A stretch of DNA of 64,000 bases, from contig JBAYJO010000001.1 in the NCBI GenBank assembly GCA_041665085.1, positions 40,671 to 104,670 on the forward strand, read 5' to 3'. This DNA is from Patescibacteria group bacterium (GTDB lineage Bacteria; Patescibacteriota; UBA1384; JBAYJO01). A program made the position numbers and the translations under genes. Below are positions 20,328-46,150 of this stretch, one piece after another. Position 1 is the stretch's first letter. Each line of letters opens with the position of its first letter. The notes beneath the pieces were generated by a model. It was given only the letters and a program-made list of their open reading frames with translations, did no database searches and was not told where the DNA came from.

Positions 20328-20846
20328 ATGTGTATGGAAGATAAGCTTATTTTAGTTAATGAGCAGGATGAAGAGGTTGGAACCGAAGTTAAACTTGAGG
20401 TTCACGAAAAAGGCGCATTACATCGTGCTTTTTCTATTTTGGTTTTCGATTCATCGAAAAAGTTGATTATACAAAAACGGGCGGAAGGGAAGTATCATTC
20501 CGGTGGGCTTTGGGCAAATACTTGCTGCTCTCATCCTAGAGAGGGTGAAAAACTCGATGTGGCTATTCACAGGAGATTAAAAGAAGAAATGGGTTTTGAT
20601 TGTCAGTTGGAAGAAAAATTTTCATTTATATATGAAGTGAAATTAAATGATCTCAAAGAGCATGAATTTGATCATGTTTTTTTTGGTAATTATGATGGTG
20701 AAATTGAGCCTAATCCTAAAGAAGTTTCCGAAATAAAACGGGTGAGCTGGAGCGAATTAAGTCAGGATGTAGAAAAAAACCCAGATCAATATGCATATTG
20801 GTTTAAGATTATTGTTCGAGAGATAAATCAAAGAAAATTTATTTAA
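20328..20846 (+). CDS. idi: Isopentenyl-diphosphate delta-isomerase, type 1 (Nudix fold)
   Basis: WANTCCSHP and RRLKEEMG motifs. Confidence 0.8.
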   Translation: MCMEDKLILVNEQDEEVGTEVKLEVHEKGALHRAFSILVFDSSKKLIIQKRAEGKYHSGGLWANTCCSHPREGEKLDVAIHRRLKEEMGFDCQLEEKFSFIYEVKLNDLKEHEFDHVFFGNYDGEIEPNPKEVSEIKRVSWSELSQDVEKNPDQYAYWFKIIVREINQRKFI

Positions 20847-20860
20847 AAATAATTAATTAA

Positions 20861-20983
20861 TAATTTCTAATTTCTAATTTCTAATTAATTTCCAATATTT
20901 TAAATGTTTAATGTTAAATCCTTGATTATCCTTTGATCATTTATTAATTAGGATTTATTTAGTAATTAGTAATTAGAAATTTT
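20861..20983. repeat. TIR-bounded AT-rich element, copy A
   Basis: 5' (TAATTTC)n TAATTAATTTCCAAT and 3' TAGTAATTAGTAATTAGAAATT inverted ends. Lies between convergent genes. Confidence 0.55.
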
Positions 20984-20993
20984 GTAATTTTAG

Positions 20994-22085: not shown

Positions 22086-23864
22086 TTAAATTATTTCTAA
22101 TACTTTTTTGCAAATTCCATTAGCTGTTAAGCCATATTTTTCTCTAAGTTCGTTAATTTCTCCGTGTTCGATGAAATCTTCAATTCCAATTCTTACAACT
22201 TGAGTGTCTTGAATGTTTTGTTTTTGAAGCTCTTCCAAAATTGCGGAGCCAAAACCACCATCTAAAATATTTTCCTCAACAGTGATTATTTTACCGGTTT
22301 TTGCGGCATTTTTTACCATTTCCGAATCAATCGGTTTTACTGACCTGGCGTTATATACTGTTGCGTGGATATCATTCTTTTTAAGTAGATTTGATGCCTC
22401 AATAGCGGGATAGACCATGGATCCGATGGCTAAAATTGCAGCGTTGTTTCCTCGTCTTAACTTTTCTGCTTTTCCGATCTCGAGTTTTTCAAGAGTTCGG
22501 TTCATTGCGCTTCCGATGCCTGTCCCGCGAGGATAGCGAATGGCAATTGGACCTTCAGTGTATTGGGTGGCAGTGTAAAGCATATGCTGGAGTTCGTTTT
22601 CATCTTTTGGCGCCAAAATTATCATATGCGGGATATTTCTTAAATATGACAGGTCAAAAGCTCCGTGATGAGTTGGTCCATCGGATCCAACAAGGCCGGC
22701 TCGGTCAATCGCAAAAATTACTGGAATTTTTTGCAAAGCAACATCATGTAAGATTTGGTCGTAACTTCTTTGAAGAAAAGTGGAGTAAATGGCAACAACC
22801 GGTTTAAATCCTTCAAGCGCCAGGGCGGATGCAAATACAACAGCGTGTTCTTCAGCAATACCAGTATCGAAGAATCTCTCGGGGAATTCAAGAGCGAATT
22901 TATCGATTCCTGTTCCCGCAGGCATGGCTGCGGTTATGGCTATGATTTTTTTATCTTTTTTTGCCAGCTTAATTAAGGTATTGCCAAAGACTTTAGTGTA
23001 GGTTAGTTTTTTGGTGTCTTTGGATGTTTTTCCTGATTCCAAAATAAATGGGCTGGTTGAGTGAAATGCAGGGGGATTGTGTTCGGAGTAGTAATATCCA
23101 AGACCTTTTTTTGTTTCAATATGAATCAGTTTTGGTCCTGGTGTTTCTTGGGCAAGATTAAACACATCAATTAATTGTTTAATGTCGTGCCCATCGATGG
23201 GACCGAAATATTTAAATCCAAGAGAATGAAATATTGATTCAATATCGGTGTGAGGCTCTCCATTCATATGAATAGAGGAAAGTTTTTCCAGATAATTGGC
23301 TATGCCTCCGGTATTTTTTGAGATGGAAAATTTATTATCATTTAAAATTACTGTAAGATCGGTTTCTGTTGAACCAACATTATTTATACCTTCAAAAGTT
23401 AAGCCATTTGTTAGGCTGCCATCCCCGATAATTGCAACAACATGATTTTTTTCTTTTTTTAGATCGCGAGCTTGAGCAAAACCTAGCGCAGCCGAAACAG
23501 CCGTTCCGACATGACCGGCTCCATAGCAGTCGTGCTCGCTTTCTTCTCTTTTCAAATATCCACTTAGCCCGTCTTTTAATCTTAATGTTGAAAATTTTTC
23601 ATATCTTCCGGTGAGTAGTTTGTGTGTGTATGCCTGATGTCCGACATCCCAGACGATTTTATCTTCAGGGGAATTATATGAGTAGTGAAGTGCGATTGTG
23701 AGTTCGACTGTTCCCAAGTTTGGGGCTAAATGGCCACCGTTTTTTGCAACGGTTTTAATAAGGACTGTTCTGATTTCTTCAGATAGTTTTTTTAGCTGGG
23801 TAATCGGTAGCTTCTTTAAGTTTTTCGGACCTTTAATTTTTTTGAGTAAAGATTTTTTAAACAT
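22086..23864 (-). CDS. dxs: 1-deoxy-D-xylulose-5-phosphate synthase
   Basis: TPP-binding GDG region, DVGHQAYTHK, transketolase-like C-terminal domains. Confidence 0.9.
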   Translation of the reverse strand: MFKKSLLKKIKGPKNLKKLPITQLKKLSEEIRTVLIKTVAKNGGHLAPNLGTVELTIALHYSYNSPEDKIVWDVGHQAYTHKLLTGRYEKFSTLRLKDGLSGYLKREESEHDCYGAGHVGTAVSAALGFAQARDLKKEKNHVVAIIGDGSLTNGLTFEGINNVGSTETDLTVILNDNKFSISKNTGGIANYLEKLSSIHMNGEPHTDIESIFHSLGFKYFGPIDGHDIKQLIDVFNLAQETPGPKLIHIETKKGLGYYYSEHNPPAFHSTSPFILESGKTSKDTKKLTYTKVFGNTLIKLAKKDKKIIAITAAMPAGTGIDKFALEFPERFFDTGIAEEHAVVFASALALEGFKPVVAIYSTFLQRSYDQILHDVALQKIPVIFAIDRAGLVGSDGPTHHGAFDLSYLRNIPHMIILAPKDENELQHMLYTATQYTEGPIAIRYPRGTGIGSAMNRTLEKLEIGKAEKLRRGNNAAILAIGSMVYPAIEASNLLKKNDIHATVYNARSVKPIDSEMVKNAAKTGKIITVEENILDGGFGSAILEELQKQNIQDTQVVRIGIEDFIEHGEINELREKYGLTANGICKKVLEII

Positions 23865-24359: not shown

Positions 24360-24704
24360 CTATAGCAATTTACGAAGTTGGTTTGCCAGCTCTGGGAGAT
24401 CTTCTTCAACAACTTTCCAAACCTCATCAACATTCACATAATCGTATTCATGGACTAAGAGATTGCGCATCCCAATTGCTTCCTTAATGGGGAGATCGGG
24501 ATTTTTTTCTCTTAAATCGGTAGATAATTTTTTTGCTGCTTCACCTAAAATTTCCAAATTTCTCATAACAGCGTCTTGTATGAGCTTAGTGTTGGCGAAT
24601 TTTATGTAATCATAACCTTTACAGTATTCAAGAATCTGATCCGTAGCATCTAGCATATCTTTAAGATAAACTTCATCTTTTTTCATATAGAACTTTCGTA
24701 TCAT
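24360..24704 (-). CDS. HepT (HEPN-domain) toxin
   Basis: R-x4-HxY motif RNLLVHEY. Confidence 0.75.
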   Translation of the reverse strand: MIRKFYMKKDEVYLKDMLDATDQILEYCKGYDYIKFANTKLIQDAVMRNLEILGEAAKKLSTDLREKNPDLPIKEAIGMRNLLVHEYDYVNVDEVWKVVEEDLPELANQLRKLL

Positions 24705-24972
24705 TCAAAATATTTTTTTTGATACTTGGTTTAATGTTTTTTCTAGAGACCAGATCGACTGGTCGACCGAGCATTTCCTCTAAATCATATTGGATGCCCC
24801 CAATTTTCATAAGTGATTTAGTTTCTTCGAAATCAACCATTATATCAATATCGCTATCATCTTTCTCTTCTCCACGAGCAAAAGAACCAAAAATTCCAAA
24901 GTAATTAATTTGGTTTTTTTGGCAGTAGTCTTGAAGCTCAATTTTATTGTCGATTAGGAGTTGTTTTTTCAT
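24673..24972 (-). CDS. MntA minimal nucleotidyltransferase antitoxin
   Basis: GSFARGE...SDIDI (GS-x9-13-DxD). Overlaps HepT by 32 nt. Confidence 0.75.
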   Translation of the reverse strand: MKKQLLIDNKIELQDYCQKNQINYFGIFGSFARGEEKDDSDIDIMVDFEETKSLMKIGGIQYDLEEMLGRPVDLVSRKNIKPSIKKNILNDTKVLYEKR

Positions 24973-25101
24973 AACTTAATTTTATCAAATATTGCTCATT
25001 TTGCATATAGTAGAATTCATTAGCGTTCTAGTATGTTGTGGGTTTAAAATGTTTTTTTGAGGTAATATATAAATTAGATATTGAATCTATTTAGGAGGGA
25101 A

Positions 25102-25551
25102 GTGAAAAAAGTTTCACAGGCAATTTGGCTTGATTCTAAAAAAATTGAAAAACCTGTGAATTTAAGAAAAAAAACTTGGGCTTTTTTAATTTTTGAGCTT
25201 GAAAAAATGGATTATGATGATTTAATACAGCATTTAGGGGATTTGGGTTATGGTAATGCTAAAAAATTAGATAAATTCAAAGCATTGAAAATAATTGCTG
25301 ATTGCCCAGCGCCTTTTCTTTTGAGAATTGGAATTTTAAATTTTGCTGATTTGATGAGTAATACAGTTATTTCTTTAGACGAAGGTGTTGAATATATTAT
25401 TGATAAAAAAGCGGCAGATGAATTAAAATCAAGTACGCAATCTGTTGATCTAATTAGACTTTACGATAATAAATTAAAAAGGTTTGATCGAAAAGAAATT
25501 ATCCAATCAATATTTTCAGAAAAAGTTTTTGACCAACTATCTGAAAATTAA
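25102..25551 (+). CDS. Hypothetical protein (GTG start after RBS AGGAGGG)
   Basis: Its 5' region is duplicated at 26571-26668 and 27751-27840. Confidence 0.45.
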   Translation: MKKVSQAIWLDSKKIEKPVNLRKKTWAFLIFELEKMDYDDLIQHLGDLGYGNAKKLDKFKALKIIADCPAPFLLRIGILNFADLMSNTVISLDEGVEYIIDKKAADELKSSTQSVDLIRLYDNKLKRFDRKEIIQSIFSEKVFDQLSEN

Positions 25552-25564
25552 TAATTATTAGAAT

Positions 25565-25897
25565 TTATTTAAAATATTTTTTTTCCCAATCTTTAAAAAT
25601 GGCAATAAATTCTTGCCAAAGTTTTTCAGGATCGCCAGGAATGTGATGATCAGGAAGTTCCAAATCTCCCGCGACTGTTGCTATGTCAAACATTTCTTCG
25701 TCTTTTTCTATTTCCGGATCGAACATAAGTTCGGCAATTTGATAAGCAGTTTCTTTTCTGTCGATTTCTTTTTTCTCTAGTTTATCTAAAACTTTATTAA
25801 CAAAATCAACGAATTTTTTTCGTTCTTTGAATTTCTTTTTTTCTTCTTCAGGCGATAAATTTGTTTGTTCTGAAAAGATTTTCATAAAGTGTTTCAT
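25565..25897 (-). CDS. Hypothetical protein
   Basis: ORF only. Confidence 0.4.
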   Translation of the reverse strand: MKHFMKIFSEQTNLSPEEEKKKFKERKKFVDFVNKVLDKLEKKEIDRKETAYQIAELMFDPEIEKDEEMFDIATVAGDLELPDHHIPGDPEKLWQEFIAIFKDWEKKYFK

Positions 25898-25900
25898 ATT

Positions 25901-26113
25901 TTATTTTGAAGAAGTAATATCATTAAATGCTTTTATTACATCTTCCTTCTCAAATTCATCAAGAGCTAGAATATAATCGATTTCTCTGATTTTTTCTGGT
26001 TCACAATAAAAAACTAATCCAACTTTATCGGCAATGAATTTCAATTGATTTTTAGAGAGTTTAACTAATTTTTTTTTGAAATTTTCAAATTCTTTTTTAG
26101 TAAATTCAGACAT
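25901..26113 (-). CDS. Hypothetical protein
   Basis: ORF only. Forms a tight pair with 25565-25897. Confidence 0.4.
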   Translation of the reverse strand: MSEFTKKEFENFKKKLVKLSKNQLKFIADKVGLVFYCEPEKIREIDYILALDEFEKEDVIKAFNDITSSK

Positions 26114-26172
26114 ATTTGCTCCTATTAATCTTATTTATTGAGTGAGAGGACGAATGCCCTCTCACTCAGAGC

Positions 26173-26457
26173 TCATTGTTTGTTGACGGGTATGTCAACG
26201 GGCTGGCTGTTGTATCCTGGCGTGTCGTAGTTGTGGCCAACCTTTTCTGTATCACAACCACGGTTACTCACTGTTCTCTGGGTGTCTGTGTGGATGACTC
26301 CAGTTTTGTCTGGATGTTCTGGTGAAAACCTGATTCTTGTTTCTTTCGAGCTTCCGCCTGAGCCGCCACTACTCCCAGAGCTTTTATCACCTCCCGACGA
26401 GCCGGATTCGCCGCCCGATGACGGGCTAGTTCCGAAAATGGCATCCCATAAACCCAT
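26173..26457 (-). CDS. Hypothetical Gly/Ser-rich protein, GC-rich
   Basis: RBS AGGTG before ATG at 26457. A perfect 11-bp hairpin lies downstream (26128-26157). Confidence 0.4.
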   Translation of the reverse strand: MGLWDAIFGTSPSSGGESGSSGGDKSSGSSGGSGGSSKETRIRFSPEHPDKTGVIHTDTQRTVSNRGCDTEKVGHNYDTPGYNSQPVDIPVNKQ

Positions 26458-26673
26458 TACTGCACCTCTATTTGTGTGCGAATGCATGTGTTCTTATTGC
26501 TAAGTATATGTTGTTTTATCAAGCTGTCAAGAGTTCATTACTTTTTTTATGGATTAAAATATTGTATTCAAATGTTTTTTTGAGGTAATATATAAATTAG
26601 AGATAGAATCTATTTAGGAGGGAAGTGAATAAAGTTTTGAGGGCAATTTGGAATGAATTTATTGTCTAAAAAT

Positions 26674-27639
26674 TTACTTCTCTATGATTTGTAGTTTTAG
26701 TTCCAAAAAATTTGTATCTAGTTCTAAGATTTGTTCTTCTTTGTCTTTTATTTTTAGCCAATCTTCAATTAAATGGCATTTTTCTCCTAGAATTTCTTTT
26801 GCGATTTGATACCCCGAAGCGCATGCCGGATACATTCCTTTTCCAGTAAGTCCGGAGGCTAATCCCGCGGCATCACCTGCAAGATAAATATTATCAAATT
26901 TGTATCCTTGATAATCATAGTTTATTATTGACCCAGCGAATTTTCCTTTTGAAATATCAATATTATTTTTTTCAATCCATCTTTTCAAATTTTGAGTTAG
27001 CAATGGTAGGTTGGGGGATTTGTAATCAACTGCTGCTCCGACAGAAGTAAATTTATTATTTGGAAATATCCAAGCATAACCTTTATCAAATAATTGTTCA
27101 TCAACAAACATTTCGAAATCAGGATAAACCTTGGGAATGGTGTAATGGACAGCAGCTATAAATTTTTTTGTTTCGAGGCCAAGGAATTTTCGAACTATTG
27201 AAAATGAGCCGTCAGCACCAATTAAATATTTGAAATTTATTTCTAATCCATTAGCGGTTAGTTTATTTTTTTCAATATTTGTTATTTTTTGACCTAATTT
27301 AATATCAATATTCTTAAATTCAGAAAGTTCGTTTTTAAGTTTATTTAAAAAATCAGGCCTGCAAATTGAAGAGATCAAGCTCTGGTTAGTTGGCATTCTG
27401 TGTTTTTTATTTTTAGTTACGATTACTAGAGGTTTAAGGGAAAAGTTCATGCTTGATTCAGGAATAAATTGTATATCTTCGTCTTCTACGCCATAACCGC
27501 AGGGTTTTAATCCCAGTTCATTATTTTTTTCTAAAACCAAAACGTTTATGTTAGAATTTCCTAGCGCTTTTGCACAGTTTAATCCTGCAAAGCTTGCACC
27601 GATTATTACAATGTCATAAAAGTTTATTATCTTTTGCAT
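26674..27639 (-). CDS. Geranylgeranyl reductase family FAD-dependent oxidoreductase
   Basis: N-terminal FAD fold DIVIIGASFAGLNCA, LVLEKN, GDAAG. Confidence 0.7.
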   Translation of the reverse strand: MQKIINFYDIVIIGASFAGLNCAKALGNSNINVLVLEKNNELGLKPCGYGVEDEDIQFIPESSMNFSLKPLVIVTKNKKHRMPTNQSLISSICRPDFLNKLKNELSEFKNIDIKLGQKITNIEKNKLTANGLEINFKYLIGADGSFSIVRKFLGLETKKFIAAVHYTIPKVYPDFEMFVDEQLFDKGYAWIFPNNKFTSVGAAVDYKSPNLPLLTQNLKRWIEKNNIDISKGKFAGSIINYDYQGYKFDNIYLAGDAAGLASGLTGKGMYPACASGYQIAKEILGEKCHLIEDWLKIKDKEEQILELDTNFLELKLQIIEK

Positions 27640-27750
27640 GAGTTAATTTTATTTTAATAAATTGATTTTTGCAATAAATTTTCTTTTGTTATTTGAGTTG
27701 ATTTAATTAATAAATCGAGCTAATTTAGAGTTAATGAAAAATCAAATAAT

Positions 27751-27840
27751 AAAAATTGGAAAACCTGTAAATTTAAAAAAAAGACTTGGATTTTTTTAAT
27801 TTCTGGGCTTGAAAAAATTGATTATAGTAATTTATTACGG
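27751..27840 (+). pseudogene. Degraded fragment homologous to codons ~13-45 of the 25102 gene
   Basis: ~80% nucleotide identity to 25139-25228, with a frame disruption. Confidence 0.5.
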
Positions 27841-27912
27841 TAATCATCAGGTTAAAATCGTTCACGGAACAGAAATATTTCGTTAATAAATTCTTTTGTC
27901 ATCGATATTAAT

Positions 27913-28620
27913 CTATTTAGTCTTTGATTCATTCTCGATCAAAAATGGGTTGAAATTTGTTTTGTCATCAAAAGCGTCTTCCTTTTCCTCTTTTTTCAAA
28001 AAGCTTACAACTCGATAAGTCAAGGGGGTCATGATAACTTCTACACCCGTTTTGAATAAATAATTTGAAATAATAATTGTCAAGACAATGCCTGGGTTAA
28101 GGATTCCAATAAACGCAATACTAACAAAGAGTACAGAATCAACAAGTTCCCCCACTAAAGTCGATCCTATCGTCCTAGTCCATAACCATTTTCCCTTTGT
28201 AAAGACCTTCATCTTCGCCAAAATGTAGCTATTTGTAAATTCTCCAGCCCAGTATGCTATTAATGATGCTAGCACAATACGAGGAACTAAACTGAACAAG
28301 GCTTTAAATGCATCATTCCACTGCCAACTTTCATTTGGCGGAATTGCCGCCACAATAGCAAGCGTAATAGCCATAAGTATTGCCGAGATAAAACCGGTCC
28401 AGATAACCTTGCGTGATCCCGAATATCCGTACACCTCAGTTAATATATCGCCAAAGATATAGGAGAGAGGGAATAGTAATGTGCCACCATCAAATACAAA
28501 AGGGCCAATATTAATAATTTTGGTTGAGGCAATATTGCTGATTAACAGAACAGCTACAAAAAGGCCGGTGATTATAGGAAACCATTTATAATTTTCTAAT
28601 TTTCTTTCAGAGTTCTTCAT
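27913..28620 (-). CDS. Queuosine precursor transporter, YhhQ/COG1738 family
   Basis: Signature FPLSYIFGDILTEVYGY. Polytopic membrane protein. Confidence 0.75.
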   Translation of the reverse strand: MKNSERKLENYKWFPIITGLFVAVLLISNIASTKIINIGPFVFDGGTLLFPLSYIFGDILTEVYGYSGSRKVIWTGFISAILMAITLAIVAAIPPNESWQWNDAFKALFSLVPRIVLASLIAYWAGEFTNSYILAKMKVFTKGKWLWTRTIGSTLVGELVDSVLFVSIAFIGILNPGIVLTIIISNYLFKTGVEVIMTPLTYRVVSFLKKEEKEDAFDDKTNFNPFLIENESKTK

Positions 28621-28689
28621 AATTCATACATTTAATAATTAATATTGTTTAATTTGTATAATCTGGTAGGCTGTTCTAACACGAACAGC

Positions 28690-29385
28690 CTACCATGGAG
28701 ATAGTGGGGAGATGAAGCTCATCGCTTTTTGGACCGTTTCATCGATAGGTTTCTCATTGCACAGAACTATCCAATGAATTGGCTTCACAGAGAACGTTTC
28801 TATTAGTCGATCGAAGCACTCTTTATCGGCAACGTTTTTCTCAGCCATTCCTAGTTGAGTGTTGTCGAAATCAAGTAGGGCTGTTTCTCTGTTCGAGAAC
28901 CTTTCAATCGCCACTTCTGGAGAAGTTTCTAGATATATCAACTTCAAATCAGTGTAGCGGTTCAGTATCCCTAGTAATCTTGGATCCAGATCAGGAACAA
29001 ACTTTCCATTAACAAGCCCTGCTGATTTGCGAAGTGCTTTGGTCCGTCTAATGGAGAAATGTCCGTCAATAAGCAGTAGCTCGCTCTTTGATGCTAAAAA
29101 ACGCATCAGCACGAGCCAAGCGGCTCGTTCAATAAAGTCGTCGTGGTAAGGACCAATCTGATCCCAACCTGAGAGTCCCTCTGTTCCCCCAATCTCGACT
29201 ACGAGTTGACGTTGCTTGGCTGTTAGGCAGCCAGTCATACTTTGTATGACCGAGCATAGTGTTGTTTTGCCGGCACCATGATTACCTCCCACTACTGCTA
29301 CCTGTTTCACGCACAGCACCTCCTTATCTGTGAATACTCCATCTAATATACTAGATACCGAACTTTTGTCAATACAAATCGACAA
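28690..29385 (-). CDS. P-loop NTPase / predicted kinase (AAA_33-like), GC-rich
   Basis: Walker A GGNHGAGKTT. A perfect 12-bp hairpin lies downstream (28654-28684). Confidence 0.5.
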   Translation of the reverse strand: MSICIDKSSVSSILDGVFTDKEVLCVKQVAVVGGNHGAGKTTLCSVIQSMTGCLTAKQRQLVVEIGGTEGLSGWDQIGPYHDDFIERAAWLVLMRFLASKSELLLIDGHFSIRRTKALRKSAGLVNGKFVPDLDPRLLGILNRYTDLKLIYLETSPEVAIERFSNRETALLDFDNTQLGMAEKNVADKECFDRLIETFSVKPIHWIVLCNEKPIDETVQKAMSFISPLSPW

Positions 29386-29395
29386 GCCCTACTTC

Positions 29396-30643
29396 TTATC
29401 TTGAAATGATAATCTCACTAAATCCAGATATATAATTTTTTTCTATATTATACGATGACAGTACCTTGACTTTTTCTTTCTTTTTGACCTCCACAGCTTT
29501 GTTTTTATTGTTCATTATTAATTCGATAAGTTTAATTAGTTCTTTTGTATTGTGTTTACACAAAAAACCATTTTGCCAGTTTTGAATTATGCTTGTGAAG
29601 CATTGGATGTTGCTGTTGATAGTATATAAATCTTTATGAGAAATTAGTACTGCTTCGTTTGGAACAATTGGACTGAAATCTCTAAGTGGCATATTAATCA
29701 AAAATTTTGTGTTAGAGTATCTTAATAGATACTTTGGAAGGTCTGGCTCATAATCAAAAAATAAATAAATTTGTGAATTATCTTTTGCAATTTCTGCAAG
29801 ATTGTTTTGAATTTTTTCAATAAATGCTTCATCGCTAAAACTAGAAGCAATTAAAATTCCTATAAAATCGTCGTGCTTCTTGCAAAACTGAATCATACAA
29901 TTTAAAGAAAAATCCAGTCCTTTATATTCGTCAGCCCTTGCGTATGAAAAAATGATTTTTTTATCGAGAGGGATCTTTTTTTTGGCTAGAAACAATTTAA
30001 TTTGTTGTTTAGTTAATCTGGTGTATTTTTTAAGTTCATTAAAATTTAGACCATTCCTAAACTGAATCACCTTGTTATTGGGGATTGCAAGCTTCTTCTT
30101 TATTATTTCATCAACTGACTTAGATATTGATCCCAGAAAATAATTTGGTAATTTTTTTATTTTTGAGATTGCTTGATCCTCCCAACTACGAAGATCTTTT
30201 TCGTTACAATAACTTTGTTTGTGTACGCCAGCTAAGCTATGAGGAATCCAAACATTAATTAGATTCTTTTGATCCGTTAGAACTCCTGCAAAAATTGAGT
30301 CATTGGCTAAAACTATATTTTCGCCGGAATTATTATCCGAAATATGATGAATAATGCCAATAGCTTCTTTGTTATATTCTTTCCACAAAACCAGATCAAA
30401 ATAAGAGTTATTGAGAGATTTACGTCTTTTAATATAGAAATTATTACTCGAATTTCTTTTTGTGTCAGACAGAGATATTACAAACAAACTCAATAATATT
30501 CCTCGTTTAGCAAAGTAGGCTCTAACGTTAGACCATGACTTTGCAAAGTTTTGCGCAATTGTACCTACCCCGCAACGAGTTTCGGTTATTCCATCTTCGG
30601 TTAGATAGATAATATTAAATAATTTTTTTGAGTTCATCTTCAA
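29396..30643 (-). CDS. GT-B fold glycosyltransferase-like protein
   Basis: C-terminal domain pattern YARADEYKG ... PIVPNEAV is weakly GT4-like. Confidence 0.35.
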   Translation of the reverse strand: MKMNSKKLFNIIYLTEDGITETRCGVGTIAQNFAKSWSNVRAYFAKRGILLSLFVISLSDTKRNSSNNFYIKRRKSLNNSYFDLVLWKEYNKEAIGIIHHISDNNSGENIVLANDSIFAGVLTDQKNLINVWIPHSLAGVHKQSYCNEKDLRSWEDQAISKIKKLPNYFLGSISKSVDEIIKKKLAIPNNKVIQFRNGLNFNELKKYTRLTKQQIKLFLAKKKIPLDKKIIFSYARADEYKGLDFSLNCMIQFCKKHDDFIGILIASSFSDEAFIEKIQNNLAEIAKDNSQIYLFFDYEPDLPKYLLRYSNTKFLINMPLRDFSPIVPNEAVLISHKDLYTINSNIQCFTSIIQNWQNGFLCKHNTKELIKLIELIMNNKNKAVEVKKKEKVKVLSSYNIEKNYISGFSEIIISR

Positions 30644-31175
30644 CTTTTTCTAGTAAATTCACTTTGTCATGTCCTGAGGTAATATAAATAACATTTTTTT
30701 TATTTTTAAAAAATAATTTATAAAAATCACTGCAATGTTTCATTCCTTCTGAACCACTCCATACATCCTCAATTATAGTTTTTCTTGGACGATTAATAAG
30801 GCTGAATTCTGGAGTTTGATTCAAATAAATATAATAATCTGGTTCATATAACTTATGTTCTTTTAGGGCGGTTGCAACCCATTTTTTCTTCTCCTTAAAA
30901 TTTCTGGCCAATTTAAATTTTTCTGCCACATAATCCCAAGCCAACATAGACGGGTACCCTCTATCAATAACTGAATTTTTTCTACTTCTTTGGGCTAGAT
31001 AATATTTTTCCTTTGTTTCTTCAAATATTTTTTCTTGACTATCAGAGATAGCAGACTCGTCTAAATGTCCCAATGACTCATTTACTTTTTCAAAATTAAA
31101 TCGGTCTCGTAGCAAATCTGCAACTGTGGTTTTACCACTAGCCGGAAGACCTTCAATTACGAATATCTTTTTCAT
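30615..31175 (-). CDS. P-loop nucleoside/nucleotide kinase-like protein
   Basis: VIEGLPASGKTT Walker A. Deoxynucleoside-kinase-like layout. Confidence 0.5.
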   Translation of the reverse strand: MKKIFVIEGLPASGKTTVADLLRDRFNFEKVNESLGHLDESAISDSQEKIFEETKEKYYLAQRSRKNSVIDRGYPSMLAWDYVAEKFKLARNFKEKKKWVATALKEHKLYEPDYYIYLNQTPEFSLINRPRKTIIEDVWSGSEGMKHCSDFYKLFFKNKKNVIYITSGHDKVNLLEKVEDELKKII

Positions 31176-31710
31176 TTAGTTGAAGCTCCTTTTCTCCCTT
31201 AACCCTTTTTTCCCAAGGGAATCTAATCCATTTTAAGTGGGGGCAAATAAAAGCCACATAAAGACTAACGCCATAATTTGAAGAAGACATATCAAACTTT
31301 TCGTCAATAACAATGGAGCAGATACCAGTGAGAGTGGATCCGCCTTTCTTAATCTTGGCAATTGCCCCGTCTATTGTCACCCCTTTAAAAATAATATCTT
31401 CTACAATGAGATAACGTTTACCTTTTTTAATTTTTGAGCTCATCCCAGTTTCCACAAACTCGCAGTAATCATGCGGAGTGTTTGAGGCAGTTCTTTTGCC
31501 TTGATAGAAAGATAAATCGCGCTTGACAGTATGATGAGAGATGATTGCAGCGGGAACCATGCCTCCTCGAGCCATAACTAAAATCTCATCAAAAGAAGAA
31601 GCATCAAGAGACTCAATACTCTTCAATACGCCATTAAAAATATTGTCCCAGGAGAGGCAAATCACTTTTGACTTATTGCTCATTAATTTTGGCTTATTTG
31701 CAAATTTCAT
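31153..31710 (-). CDS. Purine phosphoribosyltransferase (type I PRTase)
   Basis: ARGGMVPAAI and PRPP-binding YLIVEDIIFKGVT. Confidence 0.7.
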   Translation of the reverse strand: MKFANKPKLMSNKSKVICLSWDNIFNGVLKSIESLDASSFDEILVMARGGMVPAAIISHHTVKRDLSFYQGKRTASNTPHDYCEFVETGMSSKIKKGKRYLIVEDIIFKGVTIDGAIAKIKKGGSTLTGICSIVIDEKFDMSSSNYGVSLYVAFICPHLKWIRFPWEKRVKGEKELQLNEKDIRN

Positions 31711-32390
31711 TTGTTGATTACTACAAATGCATCAAAACTACCTTTGAAAATGGATACTTTTTTGATGTTATATGTGGCACCTAATTTTTTAATCTTACCC
31801 AAAATATTAATTAGTTTTTTTTCCTCAATGCTAGTGATTTTTCCAACTTTTCTGGTTTTATTAACACCAAAATAGTCATCTTTAGTTTCAACAATAATAT
31901 TAAATAATATGTATTTTTTGCTCATTGAATACATCTTAAAAATATTGTATTCCAAATATTTTTGGAAAAATCTTGTTTTCGAATTTAATCCACCTAAATT
32001 AATTACTAGGTCGTATTGAGCTTTAGGGTTGAAGGAAAGAAAATTTTCCGTTTTAACATCTAGTGAATTATTCTTATTCTTGACATAATTAATAAACTCT
32101 GGCACAATATCAATTCCAGTATACTGAACTTTTTTGTTACATTTGTCTTTATAAAAATAATAGAAATTGCCAGTTCCGCAACCAACATCAAAAATAGAGA
32201 AAACTTTTGCGCAATCAATTATGCCAATTGAGTAATTGAAAAATTTTAGACTGCCCTCCTTATCTCTCCAGTCTAAAGACTTTTCCGAGATGCCTGATTT
32301 TTTTATTCTTGCTTGATAGTAAGAAATTATCTTGTTTGAATCAAGTTGCCATTTTTCTAACAGAATTTTTTTATTCAAATTTTGATTCAT
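31707..32390 (-). CDS. Class I SAM-dependent methyltransferase
   Basis: Motif I DVGCGTGNF. Confidence 0.7.
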   Translation of the reverse strand: MNQNLNKKILLEKWQLDSNKIISYYQARIKKSGISEKSLDWRDKEGSLKFFNYSIGIIDCAKVFSIFDVGCGTGNFYYFYKDKCNKKVQYTGIDIVPEFINYVKNKNNSLDVKTENFLSFNPKAQYDLVINLGGLNSKTRFFQKYLEYNIFKMYSMSKKYILFNIIVETKDDYFGVNKTRKVGKITSIEEKKLINILGKIKKLGATYNIKKVSIFKGSFDAFVVINK

Positions 32391-32513
32391 ATATTAGGAT
32401 TCATATTTTAGTTATTTATACAACAATTAGGGGACTTCGTCAAAGAATTGGAAAACTCTATTTTATTCTTAGCCTTGAAAATGCTATATTGAGATTAAAG
32501 ACAGAATGATTAA

Positions 32514-33635
32514 TTGTTATTTATTATATTTCCAATGAAAAAAGTTAAATCTATATCGGCAGGTGGACTTATCTCTAGAAATTTTCAGGACAGGTTAGAA
32601 CTTCTTTTAATTACAACTCTTGATGGCAAATTGACGATTCCAAAGGGTCACATAATTGGAACTGAGACATTTGAAGAAACTGCTGTCAGAGAAATCAAGG
32701 AAGAAATTGGGCTGAAAGAAGCTGCTGTTACCGGTTCTTTGGGAGATATAACTCGAGATGGTATGGAACCTAGCGGGGAATCCTCATTAAAAGAAATCCA
32801 TTTTTTTCTTATGAAAGGATCTGGTTATACTTATCTTCATGAAGAAGATTATGTTTGGATAGAGTTTGATCGTGCGTTGAAACTTATGCAATGGAAAGAA
32901 GAAAAAGAACTGATTGAAGAGAATAAAAAGAAAATTGCCAAGAATGTCTCTGACTATTTTTCCAAAAGCGATTTATCATTACTGTGGGATAATCAATACG
33001 CCAATTATCAAAAAAGAGATGAATTCGCGTTGAAGCCATATAATATAATAGAAGAAACGCTAAGCAAGCTCACACCTAGCGCTACTATCTTTGAGTTGGG
33101 AACGGCCACAGGGAGAGATGCCCTAACTTTCGCCAAAGCTAAAAAATCTAAAATTTTTGGTATCGATATATCCTTGCACGCCATTTGTAAAATGTGTGAA
33201 AACTTTATGTCTTTTGAGCTAGATCACCTGTTAACAACAAAAGTAATGGATGCAGGAAACATTATTGAATCTGATTTACCAAAAAAAATAGATATATTTT
33301 TTGCCAGATTTGCCTTGAATCTTTCTGATATGAAAACTTTTTTTCTCATCAATGAAATTATAAAAAAAATGCCCATTGGAGGATATGTAATTATTGAGGG
33401 CAAAACCAAACAAGACTATGGTATCCTAGAGGGCAAAAAATTAGGACCAAATGTTTATAGAGATAAACACGGCTTCAATATCAGAACATGGGACGAATCA
33501 TATGTTAATGAATATTTTGTGAAGAAACTCAAGCTAAAATTAGTAAAATATAAAAAAGCTAGCTTTTTATGGGGACAGAACAGGGCCAATGTCGCCTATT
33601 TTGTTCTGCAAAAAACCAGAGAATATTGTTATTGA
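32514..33635 (+). CDS. Nudix hydrolase fused to SAM-dependent methyltransferase
   Basis: Nudix box GHIIGTETFEETAVREIKEEIGL in the N-terminal half. MTase motif I FELGTATG in the C-terminal half. Confidence 0.6.
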   Translation: MLFIIFPMKKVKSISAGGLISRNFQDRLELLLITTLDGKLTIPKGHIIGTETFEETAVREIKEEIGLKEAAVTGSLGDITRDGMEPSGESSLKEIHFFLMKGSGYTYLHEEDYVWIEFDRALKLMQWKEEKELIEENKKKIAKNVSDYFSKSDLSLLWDNQYANYQKRDEFALKPYNIIEETLSKLTPSATIFELGTATGRDALTFAKAKKSKIFGIDISLHAICKMCENFMSFELDHLLTTKVMDAGNIIESDLPKKIDIFFARFALNLSDMKTFFLINEIIKKMPIGGYVIIEGKTKQDYGILEGKKLGPNVYRDKHGFNIRTWDESYVNEYFVKKLKLKLVKYKKASFLWGQNRANVAYFVLQKTREYCY

Positions 33636-33667
33636 GAGAAATTATTAATTAATGTTAAAATAAAAAT

Positions 33668-34516
33668 ATGAAGAAAGTTTTGAAAGTGATTTGGAATGAG
33701 TTTATTTATGGGGGGCATTTGCTTGCTCTGGGACCAGTAGCCATTAATTTATCTGTGATGACTGCTTTAAAATTACCTATCAATTTTTTTATTTTAGTTG
33801 GAGTATATCTTCTATCATATATTGTTTATTTTTTCGATCGAATTCAGGATTATGATTTAGAATCATCTCAATTAAGAAAGGATTTGTATAAATTTCATTT
33901 TAAATATCGTATTTATATTTCTGTAACAGTAGTTATTGCCTTATTATTATCAATGTATGCAGCCAGCATGCAAAGTTTTTATTTGTCTTTACTATTTATT
34001 ATTTTAGGTTTTTTCTACGGTATTTTTTTTAAAAAATTAACTCATATTATAATTGGATTTAAAAGTTTTTTTGTCGCAATTCTTTATTCTGGCACGATTT
34101 TGTTTACTCTTTCAGTCATCCCAACCGTTAATAGTTTTGGGTTAAAGCTGATTCTGATTTTATTCTTTTTTTATTTTATGCGATGGTTTATTAATACATC
34201 TTTTTGTGATGTTAAGGACAGGGAAGTGGACAAGAAAATTGGTTATAAGACTTTGGCTGCAGTTTTAACCAACAGAGTTTTTTTAATAACAATTCATATA
34301 ATTAATCTTTTTTCATTAATGTTTTTAGTTATAATGATTTATTATTTTAAATTACCTTATTATTTATTTGGGTTATCTTTAGTTTTTCCTTTCACTGTCT
34401 TGTATTTAAATTTATATCAAAAACAGTATGATTTACAGAAATTAACAAATATATGGGCTGACGCAGAAGTTATAATTTGGTTATTTGTATCAATAGGAGG
34501 GTTTAAATGGGTTTAA
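33668..34516 (+). CDS. UbiA-family prenyltransferase
   Basis: Polytopic. Asp-rich motifs FFDRIQDYD and DVKDREVDKKIG. Confidence 0.6.
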   Translation: MKKVLKVIWNEFIYGGHLLALGPVAINLSVMTALKLPINFFILVGVYLLSYIVYFFDRIQDYDLESSQLRKDLYKFHFKYRIYISVTVVIALLLSMYAASMQSFYLSLLFIILGFFYGIFFKKLTHIIIGFKSFFVAILYSGTILFTLSVIPTVNSFGLKLILILFFFYFMRWFINTSFCDVKDREVDKKIGYKTLAAVLTNRVFLITIHIINLFSLMFLVIMIYYFKLPYYLFGLSLVFPFTVLYLNLYQKQYDLQKLTNIWADAEVIIWLFVSIGGFKWV

Positions 34517-36243
34517 TAGGGTTAGTTTTATTAGTGATAATAATTTTAACTGGTGGAATTTTAGGAATAGCTGTTTATAGCAGCAATAAAAAATCGATTG
34601 TTGGCAAATTTTTTCTATTAACATCCATTAGCATTCTTTTGTGGAATATTTTTGGTTATTTAGGATATTGGACAAGTTCAGATCAATATATAACTATTTT
34701 TTTTAAATTAAATTACTCAGCAGTTGCACTCTGTTTTTTGTCATTTTATTATTTTTCTGTGCACTTCCCAATCGAATTAAAAGAACGAAAACTAATCGAT
34801 TTTTCTATATATTTTTTAGGATTTGTTTTTTTAATTTTATCAATATCAAGTAATTGGATTATTAAAGATGTAAATCTTCTGAGTGATGGTTCTATCAAAA
34901 TGCAAACTGGATTTCTAGGGAATTATTTTTATCTTTACACTTTTATAGTGACTATTAATATTATTTACTCATATTTTAAAAGATATTCTTCATTAGATAG
35001 TGATATAAAATTAAAAGTGAAGTTTTTTATAATAGGAACTTCTTTGTGGGCTTTATTTAATGTAATTTTTAATATTATTGTTTCGGTTTTTGGAAATAAT
35101 TATCGCTATACCCAGCTTGGTGATTTTTCAGCAATATTTTTTATTGGCTTCACGGCTTATGCGATTTTGAAGCATCAATTATTTAATATCAAAGTCATTG
35201 CAACTGAAACTATTGTCGTTTTATTATCGATTGGCTTATTAGTAGAAACTTTTTTGTCCAATACTGTTGGGGAGGGTCTTATTAAAGCGGTGGTGTGGAT
35301 TCTTGCGACTTACGGGGGATATAGATTAATTAAAAGTGTTAAATTGGAGATTCAGCAGGCAGAAGATTTAAGAGCAGTTACTAAAAAGTTAGAAAGTACA
35401 AATAAAGATCTAAATGTTGCCAATGAAGAACTCAAAAAACTTGATAAAACTAAAGATGAGTTTATTTCAGTTGCAAGCCACGAATTAAATACTCCGCTTG
35501 CGGCTATAGAAGGTTATTTATCGATGATATTGGATGAACATATGGCTAAGGTAGATACGAAGGCAAAAGAGTATTTGAAACGCGCTTATCAATCGTCAAA
35601 ACGTCTTGCAGCACTTATTATGGACCTGCTTAATGTATCGCGTATTGAACAGGGAAGAATTCATCTTCAATATGTGGAAACTAATATCTGCGATTTAATT
35701 GAAGAAGTTGTTCATGAGCTTGAAATCAAAGCTGACCAAAAGAAAATTAAAATTAGTTTTGCCTGCCCTGCAAAAGAAATTCCAAAAACATGGCTTGATC
35801 AAGCTAGATTTCATGAAATTATTACAAATTTAACCGGAAATGCAATTAAATTTACTGAAAAGGGAGGCGTGGTTGTTTCTGCAAGCATGAAAGATGATAA
35901 GGTTACAATATGTATTAAAGATAATGGTATTGGAATTGCAAAAGAAAATTTAGAAAAATTGTTTCATAAATTTAGCCAAGTTAATCGAGAAGAATATGAA
36001 AAGCAGGGTTCCGGGCTTGGGCTGTATATTTCCAGAAGCTATGTAGAACTTATGAATGGTAGAATTTGGGCAGAAAGTGAAGGAGAAGGAAAGGGTACTT
36101 CATTTTTTGTCGAAATACCAATTCTAAAAAAGAAACCTTTTGACCCTAACGAAGGTGAAGGATCGGTTATAAGATCAACTCCTGATCAGGAAGTGATGAA
36201 ACAAGTAATGCAAATATCAGAGAAGCATGCGATAAAAGAATAA
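34507..36243 (+). CDS. Sensor histidine kinase with multi-TM N-terminal domain
   Basis: H-box VASHELNTPL, N-box LTGNAIKFT, G1 IKDNGIGI, G2 GSGLGLYIS. Confidence 0.85.
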   Translation: MGLIGLVLLVIIILTGGILGIAVYSSNKKSIVGKFFLLTSISILLWNIFGYLGYWTSSDQYITIFFKLNYSAVALCFLSFYYFSVHFPIELKERKLIDFSIYFLGFVFLILSISSNWIIKDVNLLSDGSIKMQTGFLGNYFYLYTFIVTINIIYSYFKRYSSLDSDIKLKVKFFIIGTSLWALFNVIFNIIVSVFGNNYRYTQLGDFSAIFFIGFTAYAILKHQLFNIKVIATETIVVLLSIGLLVETFLSNTVGEGLIKAVVWILATYGGYRLIKSVKLEIQQAEDLRAVTKKLESTNKDLNVANEELKKLDKTKDEFISVASHELNTPLAAIEGYLSMILDEHMAKVDTKAKEYLKRAYQSSKRLAALIMDLLNVSRIEQGRIHLQYVETNICDLIEEVVHELEIKADQKKIKISFACPAKEIPKTWLDQARFHEIITNLTGNAIKFTEKGGVVVSASMKDDKVTICIKDNGIGIAKENLEKLFHKFSQVNREEYEKQGSGLGLYISRSYVELMNGRIWAESEGEGKGTSFFVEIPILKKKPFDPNEGEGSVIRSTPDQEVMKQVMQISEKHAIKE

Positions 36244-36373
36244 AAATAGTTTTTAAAGTTCATAAAGTCTATAAAGTCGAAAGGGAAAAAGATTACTTCG
36301 TTTTGCTCGCAATGATAAAGGATATGGTAATGCCTAGAGCTAATCACTCTAGGCATTTATGTCTTATGTGAGG

Positions 36374-37342
36374 CTAGTCGTAGATTGACCAGCCGAGTTG
36401 TTTGATAGTGTCGGCAGAGATGCTGAGCTTGACGAGCTCGTTCTTACTGATTTTAGCGTCCCCTCCCCAGTCGATGACTTTCCAGCTATCTTTTGCTTTC
36501 TTCAGAAGATATGTCGTATCACCACCATACTGATGTTCTCGGGCGTCAACTACATAGTTTGTAATAGCGGCATAGTCGCCCGCGATCTTCTTCTGTCTGA
36601 ACCGATCTTTGTATGGCGGCGGCGTAATGCTAAACGGTGGAGTACATATGTTGTAGTATTCGACCGTTTCCTCAATCGTGAGTATTCTCTTGCTCTTCAG
36701 CAGTTTGATCCTTGATTGTTCCCAAAGCCGTTCGGATCTTTCGAGAATCTTCACACCACAGGGGTTGGAAAATGCCATATCTTTAGGGTGTATAATAGGT
36801 ATTTCCCAACTACGGGAGCCGTAGACATCGGTTATGTAGTATCGCATTGCTTGTGCTGAAGCTATTTCCGATTCAAGAATCCATTTACCATCAGATGATA
36901 CTTTGTTCACGATGTCGGTGTTAGCATTGATCATTTTCCGTAGCGATGTATAAGATATGCTCAATCCTTTGATCTTTGGTGAAGCATTACCGCACTCTAT
37001 TTCCCAGCAGTTGTCGGCGACCTGCTTCATGTTTGTTCCGTCGATATTGACCGCATAGAGATATCTCTGGCGGCTGTTAACTTCGGAGATGAAGTAAATC
37101 GACTTATTGTCTGGTGAGAAAACAGCTGATTCAATGAGGCAGATTGGACCGGGAAATTTGCCGGTGCAAATGAGCTTGTTGTTTCTGCCGTCTAGGTTAG
37201 AAACTTGCAATTCATCTTTCTGCCACCCAATATCAGGGCTTGAAGTTCTCACGATGTACAGCATTTTTGGGTTTGTTGCATTGGTTGATGATGTTGCGAC
37301 GAGCAATACCAAAGTGACAAAAAACAGGATTCTTTTATTCAA
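36374..37342 (-). CDS. Secreted beta-propeller-like protein (paralog 1), GC-rich
   Basis: Signal peptide. SPDNKSIYFIS and SSDGKW PD40-like repeats. C-terminus LGWSIYD. Confidence 0.55.
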   Translation of the reverse strand: MNKRILFFVTLVLLVATSSTNATNPKMLYIVRTSSPDIGWQKDELQVSNLDGRNNKLICTGKFPGPICLIESAVFSPDNKSIYFISEVNSRQRYLYAVNIDGTNMKQVADNCWEIECGNASPKIKGLSISYTSLRKMINANTDIVNKVSSDGKWILESEIASAQAMRYYITDVYGSRSWEIPIIHPKDMAFSNPCGVKILERSERLWEQSRIKLLKSKRILTIEETVEYYNICTPPFSITPPPYKDRFRQKKIAGDYAAITNYVVDAREHQYGGDTTYLLKKAKDSWKVIDWGGDAKISKNELVKLSISADTIKQLGWSIYD

Positions 37343-37739
37343 GGAACGGTACCTCCGCGAAGTGATGAGTAGATTATATAACTGAATTGTTTATTTTTCA
37401 ATAGGTTGGATTGGTTGTTGGAATGACAAATAGGGTTAAAATGATTGCTATATTTCGTTCGAATGATAATTAGTGTTATTATAAAATTAAGTCTAATACG
37501 GAATAGTATTAAGTATTAAAAAATAGTTTTTAAAATCTATAAAGTCAGAAAGTAACTGGATTCCAGCTTTCCGCCTAGGTTCGGTGAGATTGGTCACTGT
37601 AATGACAGAAGGGAAAAGATTGCCACGGATGACCTCGCAATGACAGAGGGGACTAAAATGGCAAATGAGTTGGAATGTGATAAGAAAATGGTAAGGCCTG
37701 AAGCGGGGAGCTTCAGGCCTTTGGTTTTGTGCGAGCCGG

Positions 37740-38687
37740 CTAGTCGTTGATTGACCAGCCGAGTCGCTTGGCGGTATTGGCAGTGATGTTGAGCTTGCCG
37801 AGCTTCCTCTTGTCGATCCCTGACTCATCGGAGAAGTAAACGACTTTCCAGCTACCCTGTGTTTTCTTGAGCAGGAAAGTCTCTTCTTCACCGATTCGAT
37901 TCCCTCGTGAATCGACCTCCATTCGAGTTATGCTCGCGACATTACCGATCGATTCGCTTTCTTTGAATTCTTCCCTGTTGGGAGAAAGCGGAATCCCGAG
38001 CGCGGATTTGAGAAGGCAGTAGTATTCGACTGCCTCCTCAATGCTGTACGATTTCTTCTTGAGAAGGTAATCGATCTTGGACTTAAGTTGCGCTATGTGC
38101 AACTTGTCCAACGCCTTCTTTCCGCAGGGGTTGAAGAAGCCGATATCTTGCGTCCTCGTTGCGACCGATAGCCATGTCAGTGAACCATTGGTGGCACTGA
38201 CATAATATCGGAGTTGCCCTTTTGGATCGGTCCATTGTTCAGCCATCCAACATCCATCGGGGCTGACCTTGTTCTCGATCCTCGAGCCGACTACCAGCAT
38301 CTTCTGAAGTGAAGCGTAGCTGATAGTTAGACCCTTGATCTTTTGCGGGGAATTTCCCGCTTCGATCTCCCAGCAATTCGCTATCTTTTTCAGCTTCTTG
38401 CCATCAAGTGTTGAGCTGTAGAGGTACTTTTGTCTACTGTTCACGAAGTAGATGAAGTATATCTCTTTGTTGCTAGGCGAAAAAGTGGCTGCTTCAACGT
38501 ATCCCTTTTCGCCATATAACTTGTTTCCGCAGATCGGAAACCAGTTGGTTCCGTCTGGGTTGCATACGACCAGTCTGGTATTATCCCAGCCGGTCCTTTC
38601 GATGAAGAACATCTTCGGCTGGCAGAGCGCTGACCCTGATATAACTATGGTCAGCAGAATGATGAAAAACGTGACTTTTCTGTTCAA
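37740..38687 (-). CDS. Secreted beta-propeller-like protein (paralog 2), GC-rich
   Basis: ~40% identity to 36374-37342 across the full length. C-terminus LGWSIND. Confidence 0.55.
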   Translation of the reverse strand: MNRKVTFFIILLTIVISGSALCQPKMFFIERTGWDNTRLVVCNPDGTNWFPICGNKLYGEKGYVEAATFSPSNKEIYFIYFVNSRQKYLYSSTLDGKKLKKIANCWEIEAGNSPQKIKGLTISYASLQKMLVVGSRIENKVSPDGCWMAEQWTDPKGQLRYYVSATNGSLTWLSVATRTQDIGFFNPCGKKALDKLHIAQLKSKIDYLLKKKSYSIEEAVEYYCLLKSALGIPLSPNREEFKESESIGNVASITRMEVDSRGNRIGEEETFLLKKTQGSWKVVYFSDESGIDKRKLGKLNITANTAKRLGWSIND

Positions 38688-39374: not shown

Positions 39375-39392
39375 AGTTTGTAAAGTCTAAAA

Positions 39393-46142: not shown

Positions 46143-46150
46143 ATTGTGAA

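Follow-up and report, generated by a model that had tools for sequence, protein, structure and literature searches.

Architecture of the locus

We analysed a stretch of 64,000 nt (hereafter the window; contig JBAYJO010000001.1, positions 40,671–104,670 of the forward strand, assembly GCA_041665085.1) from a Patescibacteria group bacterium, in which a short cassette, comprising an upstream region, a ribosome-binding site and the first codons of a gene, occurs twice. The first copy forms the 5′ end of gene 25102, and the second is present as two halves that flank an oppositely oriented geranylgeranyl reductase (GGR)-like gene; the duplicated first codons resemble, in turn, the start of a UbiA prenyltransferase gene at 33668. 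On balance, we lean towards reading this arrangement as the scar of a local duplication followed by deletions, one of which gave gene 25102 a new start. The features on which this reading is built are listed below, with family Y as our working name for the conserved family of ∼130–140 aa around gene 25102.

25044–25101 (+), upstream part of cassette copy 1 (P): AT-rich, with TTGAGG ... T(T/A)GAAT hexamers and the Shine–Dalgarno (SD) sequence AGGAGGG directly before the GTG of gene 25102
25102–25137 (+), N1: the first 12 codons of gene 25102 (MKKVSQAIWLDS), a diverged copy of the UbiA 5′ coding end
25137–25146 (+), fusion joint J (TAAAAAAATT), at which the match to copy A gives way to one to copy B
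25102–25551 (+), gene 25102, 149 aa, a chimera of a 14-aa captured N-terminal extension and a family-Y member
25565–26487 (−), three small ORFs (110, 70 and 104 aa) with no family match, the rest of the 1523-nt unit between the cassette copies
26567–26674 (+), copy A: the upstream part P′ (26567–26624), a remnant ORF (26625–26669) and the left-hand TAAAAATT (26667–26674)
26675–27749 (−), the segment between the halves, 1075 nt: a complete GGR-like FAD oxidoreductase ORF (26674–27639) plus 110 nt upstream of it
27747–27838 (+), copy B, a pseudogene fragment of a second family-Y gene: matches 25137–25228 at ∼85% identity (codons 15–43), with the right-hand TAAAAATT (27750–27757) and a 1-nt frameshift
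33668–33706 (+), native 5′ end of the UbiA prenyltransferase gene (33668–34516), the source type of N1, 84% identical to 26626–26663

By blastn within the window, positions 25044–25128 match 26567–26651 (90.6% over 85 nt, E 3e-29), positions 25140–25228 match 27751–27838 (85.4% over 89 nt with one gap, E 3e-23), and positions 26626–26663 match the UbiA start at 33669–33706 (84% over 38 nt, E 1e-6). The local-alignment scores of these three similarities were 130, 112 and 46, against shuffled nulls of ∼20–23 with a standard deviation (sd) of ∼3, and repeat-finder families D4, D7 and D10 agree with them. A first-pass annotation, produced by a model from the sequence, had described a duplicated cassette of promoter, ribosome-binding site and 5′ coding sequence at these places; this was borne out, as were the bracketing of the oppositely oriented GGR gene by its two halves (a segment of ∼1.08 kb, 26675–27749), the 14-aa remnant encoded by the first half and the peptide similarity to the UbiA start. 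In pairwise alignment of the three regions the similarity holds with the reading frame kept, and so is not merely a matter of AT-rich low complexity.

The homology edges of both repeat halves are sharp, and no homology was found past them (from 25229 onward, from 27839 onward, and in 26480–26566 and 24965–25043). The cassette units begin 1523 nt apart, at 25044 and 26567; P and P′ are identical at 55 of 58 nt, and an exact repeat of 32 nt (25047–25078 = 26570–26601) lies inside the cassettes. Neither blastn in the window nor a scan of a viral collection revealed further cassette copies, and a scan of a metagenome collection with cassette 21-mers gave one chance match only, to an unrelated cytochrome bd gene. 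In addition, both junctions of the GGR segment carry an 8-bp direct repeat, TAAAAATT (26667–26674 and 27750–27757), which the first-pass annotation had missed. Within 24–29 kb it is found at these two places only, and two random 8-mers would be identical with a probability of 7e-5 to 3e-4. The window itself is part of a 147.8-kb ENA metagenome contig. Contigs assembled independently by Logan from another run (SRR6484324) agree with it at 100% identity across the two GGR junctions; L002 covers window positions 26572–37639 and L004 covers 25049–26599, the only break being at the exact 32-nt repeat. The structure of the locus is therefore real, and not an assembly artefact.

The remnant ORF of copy A runs from the GTG at 26625 to the TAA at 26667–26669 and reads MNKVLRAIWNEFIV* over 14 codons. 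Copy B holds the frame of gene 25102 codons 15–43 (IGKPVNLKK-TWIFLISGLEKIDYSNLLR) save for a 1-nt deletion in an A-run, and inspection of the sequence gave 12 substitutions in 91 nt, 11 of them non-synonymous and one synonymous. Truncated at 27838, frameshifted and changed mostly at non-synonymous sites, it is a pseudogene, with no complete, unbroken paralogue and just 29 codons left of the second family-Y copy; an in-frame ATG stands at 27734, seven codons upstream of it. Divergence between the cassette copies is uneven, amounting to 3/58 in P, 9/36 in N1 and 12/91 in the copy B half (N2; Fisher's test of P vs N1, p = 0.009).

Gene 25102 joins a UbiA-like start to family Y

No Pfam, NCBIfam or PHROG family matched gene 25102, and a word-index protein search returned only the self match. 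An exhaustive HMMER scan found 64 homologues at E ≤ 1e-3, so gene 25102 is a member of family Y and not an orphan. In the full-length homologues (∼130–140 aa), residues 1/2–133 align to residues 15/16–147 of the query, and in the alignment M(K/E/Q)KP forms the start of 14 of the 19 nearest homologues, exactly level with residue 15 of gene 25102. Codon 15 (25144–25146), which aligns to the family start methionine, is ATT in gene 25102 and likewise in copy B. The AGGAGGG before the GTG apart, there is no other SD or start in ORF 25102–25551 near the position of that methionine. Because the homologues start at residue 15 while the first codons match UbiA, gene 25102 is a chimera, with P, the SD, the GTG and 12–14 UbiA-like codons fused in frame onto the start of a soluble family-Y protein of ∼135 aa (residues 15–149).

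The extension itself is hydrophilic, absent from the homologues and of low confidence over its first 10 residues (pLDDT 59) in an AlphaFold (AF2) model that otherwise scores well (pLDDT 93, pTM 0.85). As for the family as a whole (window 25102–25551, homologues P0138–P0200), its members share the motifs MxKPxxLRxxTWxF ... FDQL, and the AlphaFold model (pLDDT 93) combines a SAP-like helical part with an SH3-like barrel. The genomic neighbourhoods of the homologues proved unrelated to GGR or UbiA.

N1 and copy A match at 27 of 36 nt, and when the nine differences are polarised with UbiA, six are derived in gene 25102 and one in copy A. As copy A thus has the UbiA state at six of nine sites and gene 25102 at one, the order of derivation leads from UbiA through a copy A-like sequence to gene 25102. 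Codons 1–13 of copy A are also nearer to UbiA than to gene 25102, and tblastn with UbiA residues 1–13 matches 26625–26663. The N1 substitutions in gene 25102 (L5S, N10L, and F12S or its deletion) replaced the hydrophobic and NEF residues.

The shared peptide is the native start of UbiA

The UbiA gene (33668–34516) scores 42.1 bits against PF01040 (cutoff 34.2), and both Asp-rich motifs, FFDRIQDYD and CDVKDREVDKK, are present in the homologue alignment. We aligned 16 homologues of 29–42% identity together with the window's own gene; the N-terminal motif occurs in all of them, with E11, F12, I13, Y14, G15, G16 and H17 invariant, and the closest relative, on contig L084, starts MNKFLKVVWDEFIYGGHLVAL. 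In the AlphaFold model (pLDDT 88) residues 2–14 form a helix, followed by a GG break and then the first membrane helix. Since the motif is invariant in the subfamily and forms a structured helix in the model, MKKVLKVIWNEF (MKKVLxxIWNEF) is the native start of this UbiA subfamily, and not a detachable leader. There are three occurrences of MxKVxxxIW at gene starts in the window, and N1 forms a 38-nt island of UbiA sequence with unrelated sequence on both sides.

P was ruled out as a native UbiA promoter, as it shows no similarity to the region upstream of UbiA (score 22 vs 20). In four genomes (the window and three relatives) the UbiA gene has a −10-like box 6–7 nt before the ATG and no SD, which suggests that these four mRNAs are leaderless. 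The boxes (TAAAAT/TATAAT, ending 6–7 nt before the ATG) lie within 33620–33667 of the window, 64–143 of L084, 6251–6333 of L010 and 3942–4020 of L085. About 44% of the long ORFs in the window likewise have no SD.

The GGR-like gene is displaced

The gene at 26674–27639 matches TIGR02032 (GG-red-SF) with an E-value of 1.7e-31 and 110 bits, below the cutoff of 158.8, and PF22578 (GGR_cat) with 19.9 bits against a cutoff of 27; an isoprenoid role of its product is supported by a linkage to UbiA that is conserved in relatives. It is full length, being 75% identical end to end (318 aa) to the GGR of L084, whilst those of L010 and L085 are both 52% identical. All three relatives share the arrangement histidine kinase ← UbiA ← (79–83 nt) → GGR → membrane protein of 458–461 aa. 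In the window, UbiA and the kinase occupy 33668–36243, a distance of 6 kb separates them from GGR, which is enclosed by the cassette halves, and no gene for the membrane protein is present in the 64 kb. GGR, which stands beside UbiA in three relatives, has thus been displaced in the lineage of the window.

GGR is single-copy in the window and is the only ORF of ≥ 60 aa in its segment. No terminal inverted repeats pair the segment ends at 26675 and 27749, where just weak AT-rich pairs (∼74%) were seen; no transposase, integrase or attC-like site was found in the segment and no recombinase matches in the neighbouring genes, and the window repeat search gave no second copy of the segment. Two possible origins were tried and rejected. 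A tandem duplication of GGR, the intergenic region and UbiA does not account for copy A, as P′ is unlike the present GGR upstream region (score 19 vs a null of 22). Nor does the segment demonstrably carry the ancestral GGR–UbiA intergenic region and UbiA start, as the TTGTTATTGAG/ATGAA similarity is equalled by 28 of 75 control upstream regions.

UbiA was followed by a 7TM-type histidine kinase gene (HisKA_7TM) in every case (window 33668–36243, L006, L010, L011 and L085), with an overlap of ∼10 nt in the window, L006, L011 and L085 and a 32-nt gap in L010. A divergent GGR-like gene and the 458–461-aa membrane protein (50–54% identity) accompany UbiA in L010, L085 and L084. Together, UbiA, the kinase, GGR and the membrane protein look like a conserved, undescribed four-gene isoprenoid-lipid module of Patescibacteria.

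A probable history of the locus

The history that we favour, if by no wide measure, is that of a local, probably tandem, segmental duplication followed by loss of redundant parts, with the arrangement that has GGR in the middle being the older one. Under this reading the order cassette–GGR–small gene would be ancestral, and we infer that a unit of cassette, N1, GGR with its upstream region, the family-Y gene and the three small ORFs was duplicated in tandem. In one duplicate, slipped or illegitimate recombination between the two TAAAAATT microhomologies would have deleted GGR and its upstream region and, in the same step, the small gene's own start, leaving it reliant on a promoter, SD and start codon captured from the cassette; the other duplicate would have kept GGR and lost the redundant small gene beyond codon 43. 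Tandem duplication plus one deletion per copy yields today's order as well as the left edge common to both copies, at 25044 and 26567. Both arrangements are present, microhomology lies at the joint, the fused gene is in frame and its own start is lost, as promoter/start capture demands.

Deletion is favoured over insertion for several reasons. The joint between the UbiA and family-Y modules (25137–25146) and the place of the GGR segment agree to within ∼10 nt, as a deletion scar predicts; were it an insertion, such a coincidence would by our estimate have a probability of roughly 5% (a 10-nt window in ∼185 nt). Moreover, GGR adjoins a fragment of UbiA, its neighbour in L084, L010 and L085; the segment is without inverted ends, recombinase or a second copy; the ATG at 27734 may once have served the second copy as its native start, several family-Y members having similar short extensions in the alignment and many genes here having no SD; and the flurry of non-synonymous changes in N1 arose on the branch leading to gene 25102, once the copies had split. 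Lastly, deletions at microhomologies of 3–12 bp that cause promoter capture are frequent in bacteria (PMC6614815).

The opposite course would have begun with duplication of an already fused cassette–N1–family-Y gene, after which the 1075 nt of GGR and its promoter moved from beside UbiA into the second copy, killing it and producing a target-site duplication of 8–10 bp. We regard this as possible but less likely than deletion with capture. It accounts for both new flanks by a single event, for a direct repeat around a fragment of exactly one gene plus its upstream region, and for the changed place of GGR, which three relatives have beside UbiA and the membrane protein gene; furthermore, under one alignment the live copy has an in-frame deletion of 6 nt and the dead halves have frameshifts, the pattern of gene versus pseudogene. 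The TAAAAATT repeat itself is expected equally under insertion and deletion. An insertion would, however, have had to strike by coincidence within ∼10 nt of a pre-existing fusion joint and beside a fragment of GGR's ancestral neighbour, with no inverted repeats, transposase, integrase or attC-like site to mediate it, and no open frame runs through the reconstructed empty site. No relationship to the UbiA upstream region was detectable in the 110 nt that precede GGR (28 of 75 controls score as well), and their last 16 nt match the UbiA start at only 9 of 16 positions on inspection. Deletions, moreover, are stated to outnumber insertions about tenfold in most prokaryotes, with insertions of non-mobile DNA much the rarer of the two as against deletions (PMC6614815). 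As such, the gene disruption or insertion proposed in the first-pass annotation stands as a rearrangement, whilst its direction as an insertion is questionable, given the position of GGR at the module joint, the lack of transposon features and a collapsed site that is not an open frame. The 5-nt frame difference was dropped as a criterion of direction, as two equally good alignments give opposite readings.

Improbable, in our view, is a piecemeal history, in which the 38-nt UbiA piece was templated filler, the cassette was copied independently to two places, or gene conversion acted among the three N1 copies. The UbiA island between unrelated flanks, the uneven divergence given above and the greater closeness of copy A to UbiA than to gene 25102 would all suit it; the numbers behind the divergence are small, however, the two cassette copies have their left edges, like the joint, in the same register, as a single duplicated unit would, and the searches of the window and the viral collection gave no more cassette copies, with one chance 21-mer in the metagenome. 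A selected functional module in the three genes, be it a signal or membrane anchor, a regulatory leader peptide or an RNA element, is very unlikely and already largely refuted. Three MxKVxxxIW gene starts and an almost unchanged P′ (3/58) with perfect SD and start might speak for it; against it, the UbiA motif continues into the invariant EFIYGGH as part of the fold, copy A stops after 14 codons, and in gene 25102 the residues are replaced, the first 10 are modelled at pLDDT 59 and the family is without the segment. At the RNA level, no Rfam family matched in 24900–28000 at E ≤ 1 and the leader regions have no stable fold (z-scores −0.68, −0.61 and +0.19, thus −0.7 to +0.2). The shared leader or signal suggested in the first-pass annotation consequently found no support, the peptide being the native UbiA N-terminus and the extension being absent from family Y; a role as signal, transmembrane anchor or regulatory peptide is likewise unsupported, with a helix within the fold in UbiA, a hydrophilic extension in gene 25102 and a negative result for leader RNA. 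Least credible of all is an artefact, whether similarity by chance in AT-rich sequence or strain variants assembled into a chimera. The GC content of 25–30% and the metagenomic origin of the assembly are grounds to consider it, yet E-values of 1e-23 to 1e-29, scores > 25 sd above shuffled nulls, the preserved reading frame and the 100% match of the independent Logan assembly across both GGR junctions oppose it, and one further contig is reported with the same gene order.

A number of observations weigh against duplication followed by deletion and capture. It requires more steps than a single insertion, and also a prior event, itself unexplained, by which a UbiA 5′ fragment came to lie at the GGR 3′ end, since in relatives it is the 5′ end of GGR that UbiA faces. 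If the present repeats are collapsed into one, a TAA remains in frame, the frames are offset by 5 nt and no open frame is restored, for which reason further small indels must be assumed, by this model and by the insertion alternative alike. P differs from the native UbiA upstream region, which has no SD, so that the source of the cassette would be unexplained, and the role of P as a promoter is positional only, with the count of promoter hexamers in the region equal to the shuffled expectation. Finally, the ancestral state was seen in no close relative and no strain variant: the sole near-identical strain contig ends at 26317, a GGR scan of metagenome contigs found nothing, and a scan of Genome Taxonomy Database (GTDB) genomes with the nearby Vut_1 gene gave ≤ 68% identity, in other phyla, and no close relative. 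The nearest GGR relative (75%, L084) has the canonical UbiA/GGR arrangement, on a contig of 2.9 kb.

Predicted promoters and expression

From its position, P is a plausible promoter of gene 25102, which would be transcribed from the cassette and translated from the SD and the GTG at 25102. P carries the hexamers TTGAGG ... TTGAAT, and P′ carries TTGAGG-18-TAGAAT. The 110 nt upstream of GGR hold a promoter-like site of their own, TTGCAA-17-TAAAAT (27674–27646), and GGR shares its orientation with the three small ORFs that follow it.

P′ points antisense into GGR. Over its 58 nt P′ differs from P at 3 positions; the SD and start of copy A are intact, and its −10-like hexamer, TAGAAT, is the better one. 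It is doubtful, though conceivable, that copy A is still active, in which case it would fire, have a 14-aa UbiA-like peptide translated and drive antisense transcription into the convergent GGR. If so, it would constitute a new regulatory link between two lipid genes. Similarly, the cassette could be a portable promoter-plus-start module reused by this lineage.

Neighbouring genes and other repeats in the window

Directly left of the cassette is a toxin–antitoxin pair of MNT nucleotidyltransferase and HepT ribonuclease (24360–24972, −), the position of which fits a variable island between the DXS gene (22086–23864) and the Vut_1 transporter gene (27913–28620). The 104-aa, Gly/Ser-rich ORF among the three small ones (26173–26487, −) has a GC content of ∼0.51 against a background of 0.25–0.30, matches nothing in Pfam, NCBIfam or PHROGs, and looks foreign; a strong promoter-like site, TTGACA-16-TATACT, lies by it at 26530–26503. 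The P-loop kinase-like gene (AAA_18) at 28690–29385 (−) is likewise above background (GC 0.42–0.48) and sits in the minus-strand block of nucleotide/sugar genes that now separates GGR from UbiA.

Two intergenic repeat families were also noted. Units of TTCTAATTTCTAATTTCTAATTAATT occur at 20831–20990, 46140–46199, 48299–48455, 58442–58612 and 63289–63393, with inverted partners (e.g. 20862–20896 and 20947–20981), and may be terminator-like or REP-like elements. The second family, with (A/G)TTCATAAAGT / TAAAGTC motifs in direct and inverted orientation, is found at 36242–36294, 37519–37562, 39343–39403, 39737–39785, 42127–42190, 42272–42329, 48021–48124 and 61007–61075; the pair at 42127 and 48021 is 92% identical over 64 nt, and GC-rich paralogous stretches lie beside the family (36372–36526 vs 37738–37892, 71–81%). 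In addition, an 83-nt inverted repeat (87% complementary; 54162–54244 and 55940–56022) flanks 1695 nt, with a related GC-rich copy at 59206–59242, and this unit may be a mobile element or invertible segment.

Relation to known rearrangements and significance

The rnk–citT duplication in the Escherichia coli long-term evolution experiment is reportedly a case of promoter capture by duplication. Activation events that combine duplication with microhomology deletion (PMC6614815) similarly bring in a foreign upstream region through local rearrangement, with breakpoint repeats of 3–12 bp as compared with 8 bp here, where duplication would have supplied the spare copy. Unlike those cases, an SD, a start codon and ∼13 foreign codons would have been captured as well, giving an N-terminally extended chimeric protein; furthermore, the derived and presumed parental arrangements stand side by side, from which the direction is deduced and not observed. 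With transposons and gene cassettes the locus has in common a one-gene segment of 1075 nt, an 8-bp direct repeat and an interrupted sequence, but it differs in having no terminal inverted repeats, transposase, integrase, attC-like site or other copies, and in a segment whose end coincides exactly with a stop codon and whose sole gene is of a housekeeping type. As in chimeric genes formed by partial duplication or fusion, UbiA codons 1–13 would have become the start of an unrelated gene and then undergone fast non-synonymous change; in contrast to typical fusion genes, the donated piece is only 38 nt with no domain, and apparently provides a translation start and spacer only. With the UbiA/GGR neighbourhoods of other Patescibacteria (L084, L010 and L085) the window shares the UbiA–histidine kinase pair and a GGR-like gene (52–75% identity), although here 6 kb separate GGR from UbiA, the cassette halves enclose it, and the 64 kb contain no gene for the membrane protein.

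The locus is an ordinary rearrangement scar with a chimeric gene, and no new kind of system. It also corrects an annotation trap, in that the shared peptide is not a signal and gene 25102 is not an orphan. In this organism, a UbiA/GGR lipid gene pair that is conserved in related genomes has been pulled apart. If the favoured history holds, the locus would show cleanly, in nature and within a reduced Patescibacteria genome, how local duplication and short-repeat recombination can provide a gene with a promoter, ribosome-binding site, start codon and N-terminal extension that are all new to it, with the presumed intermediate still present beside the product.

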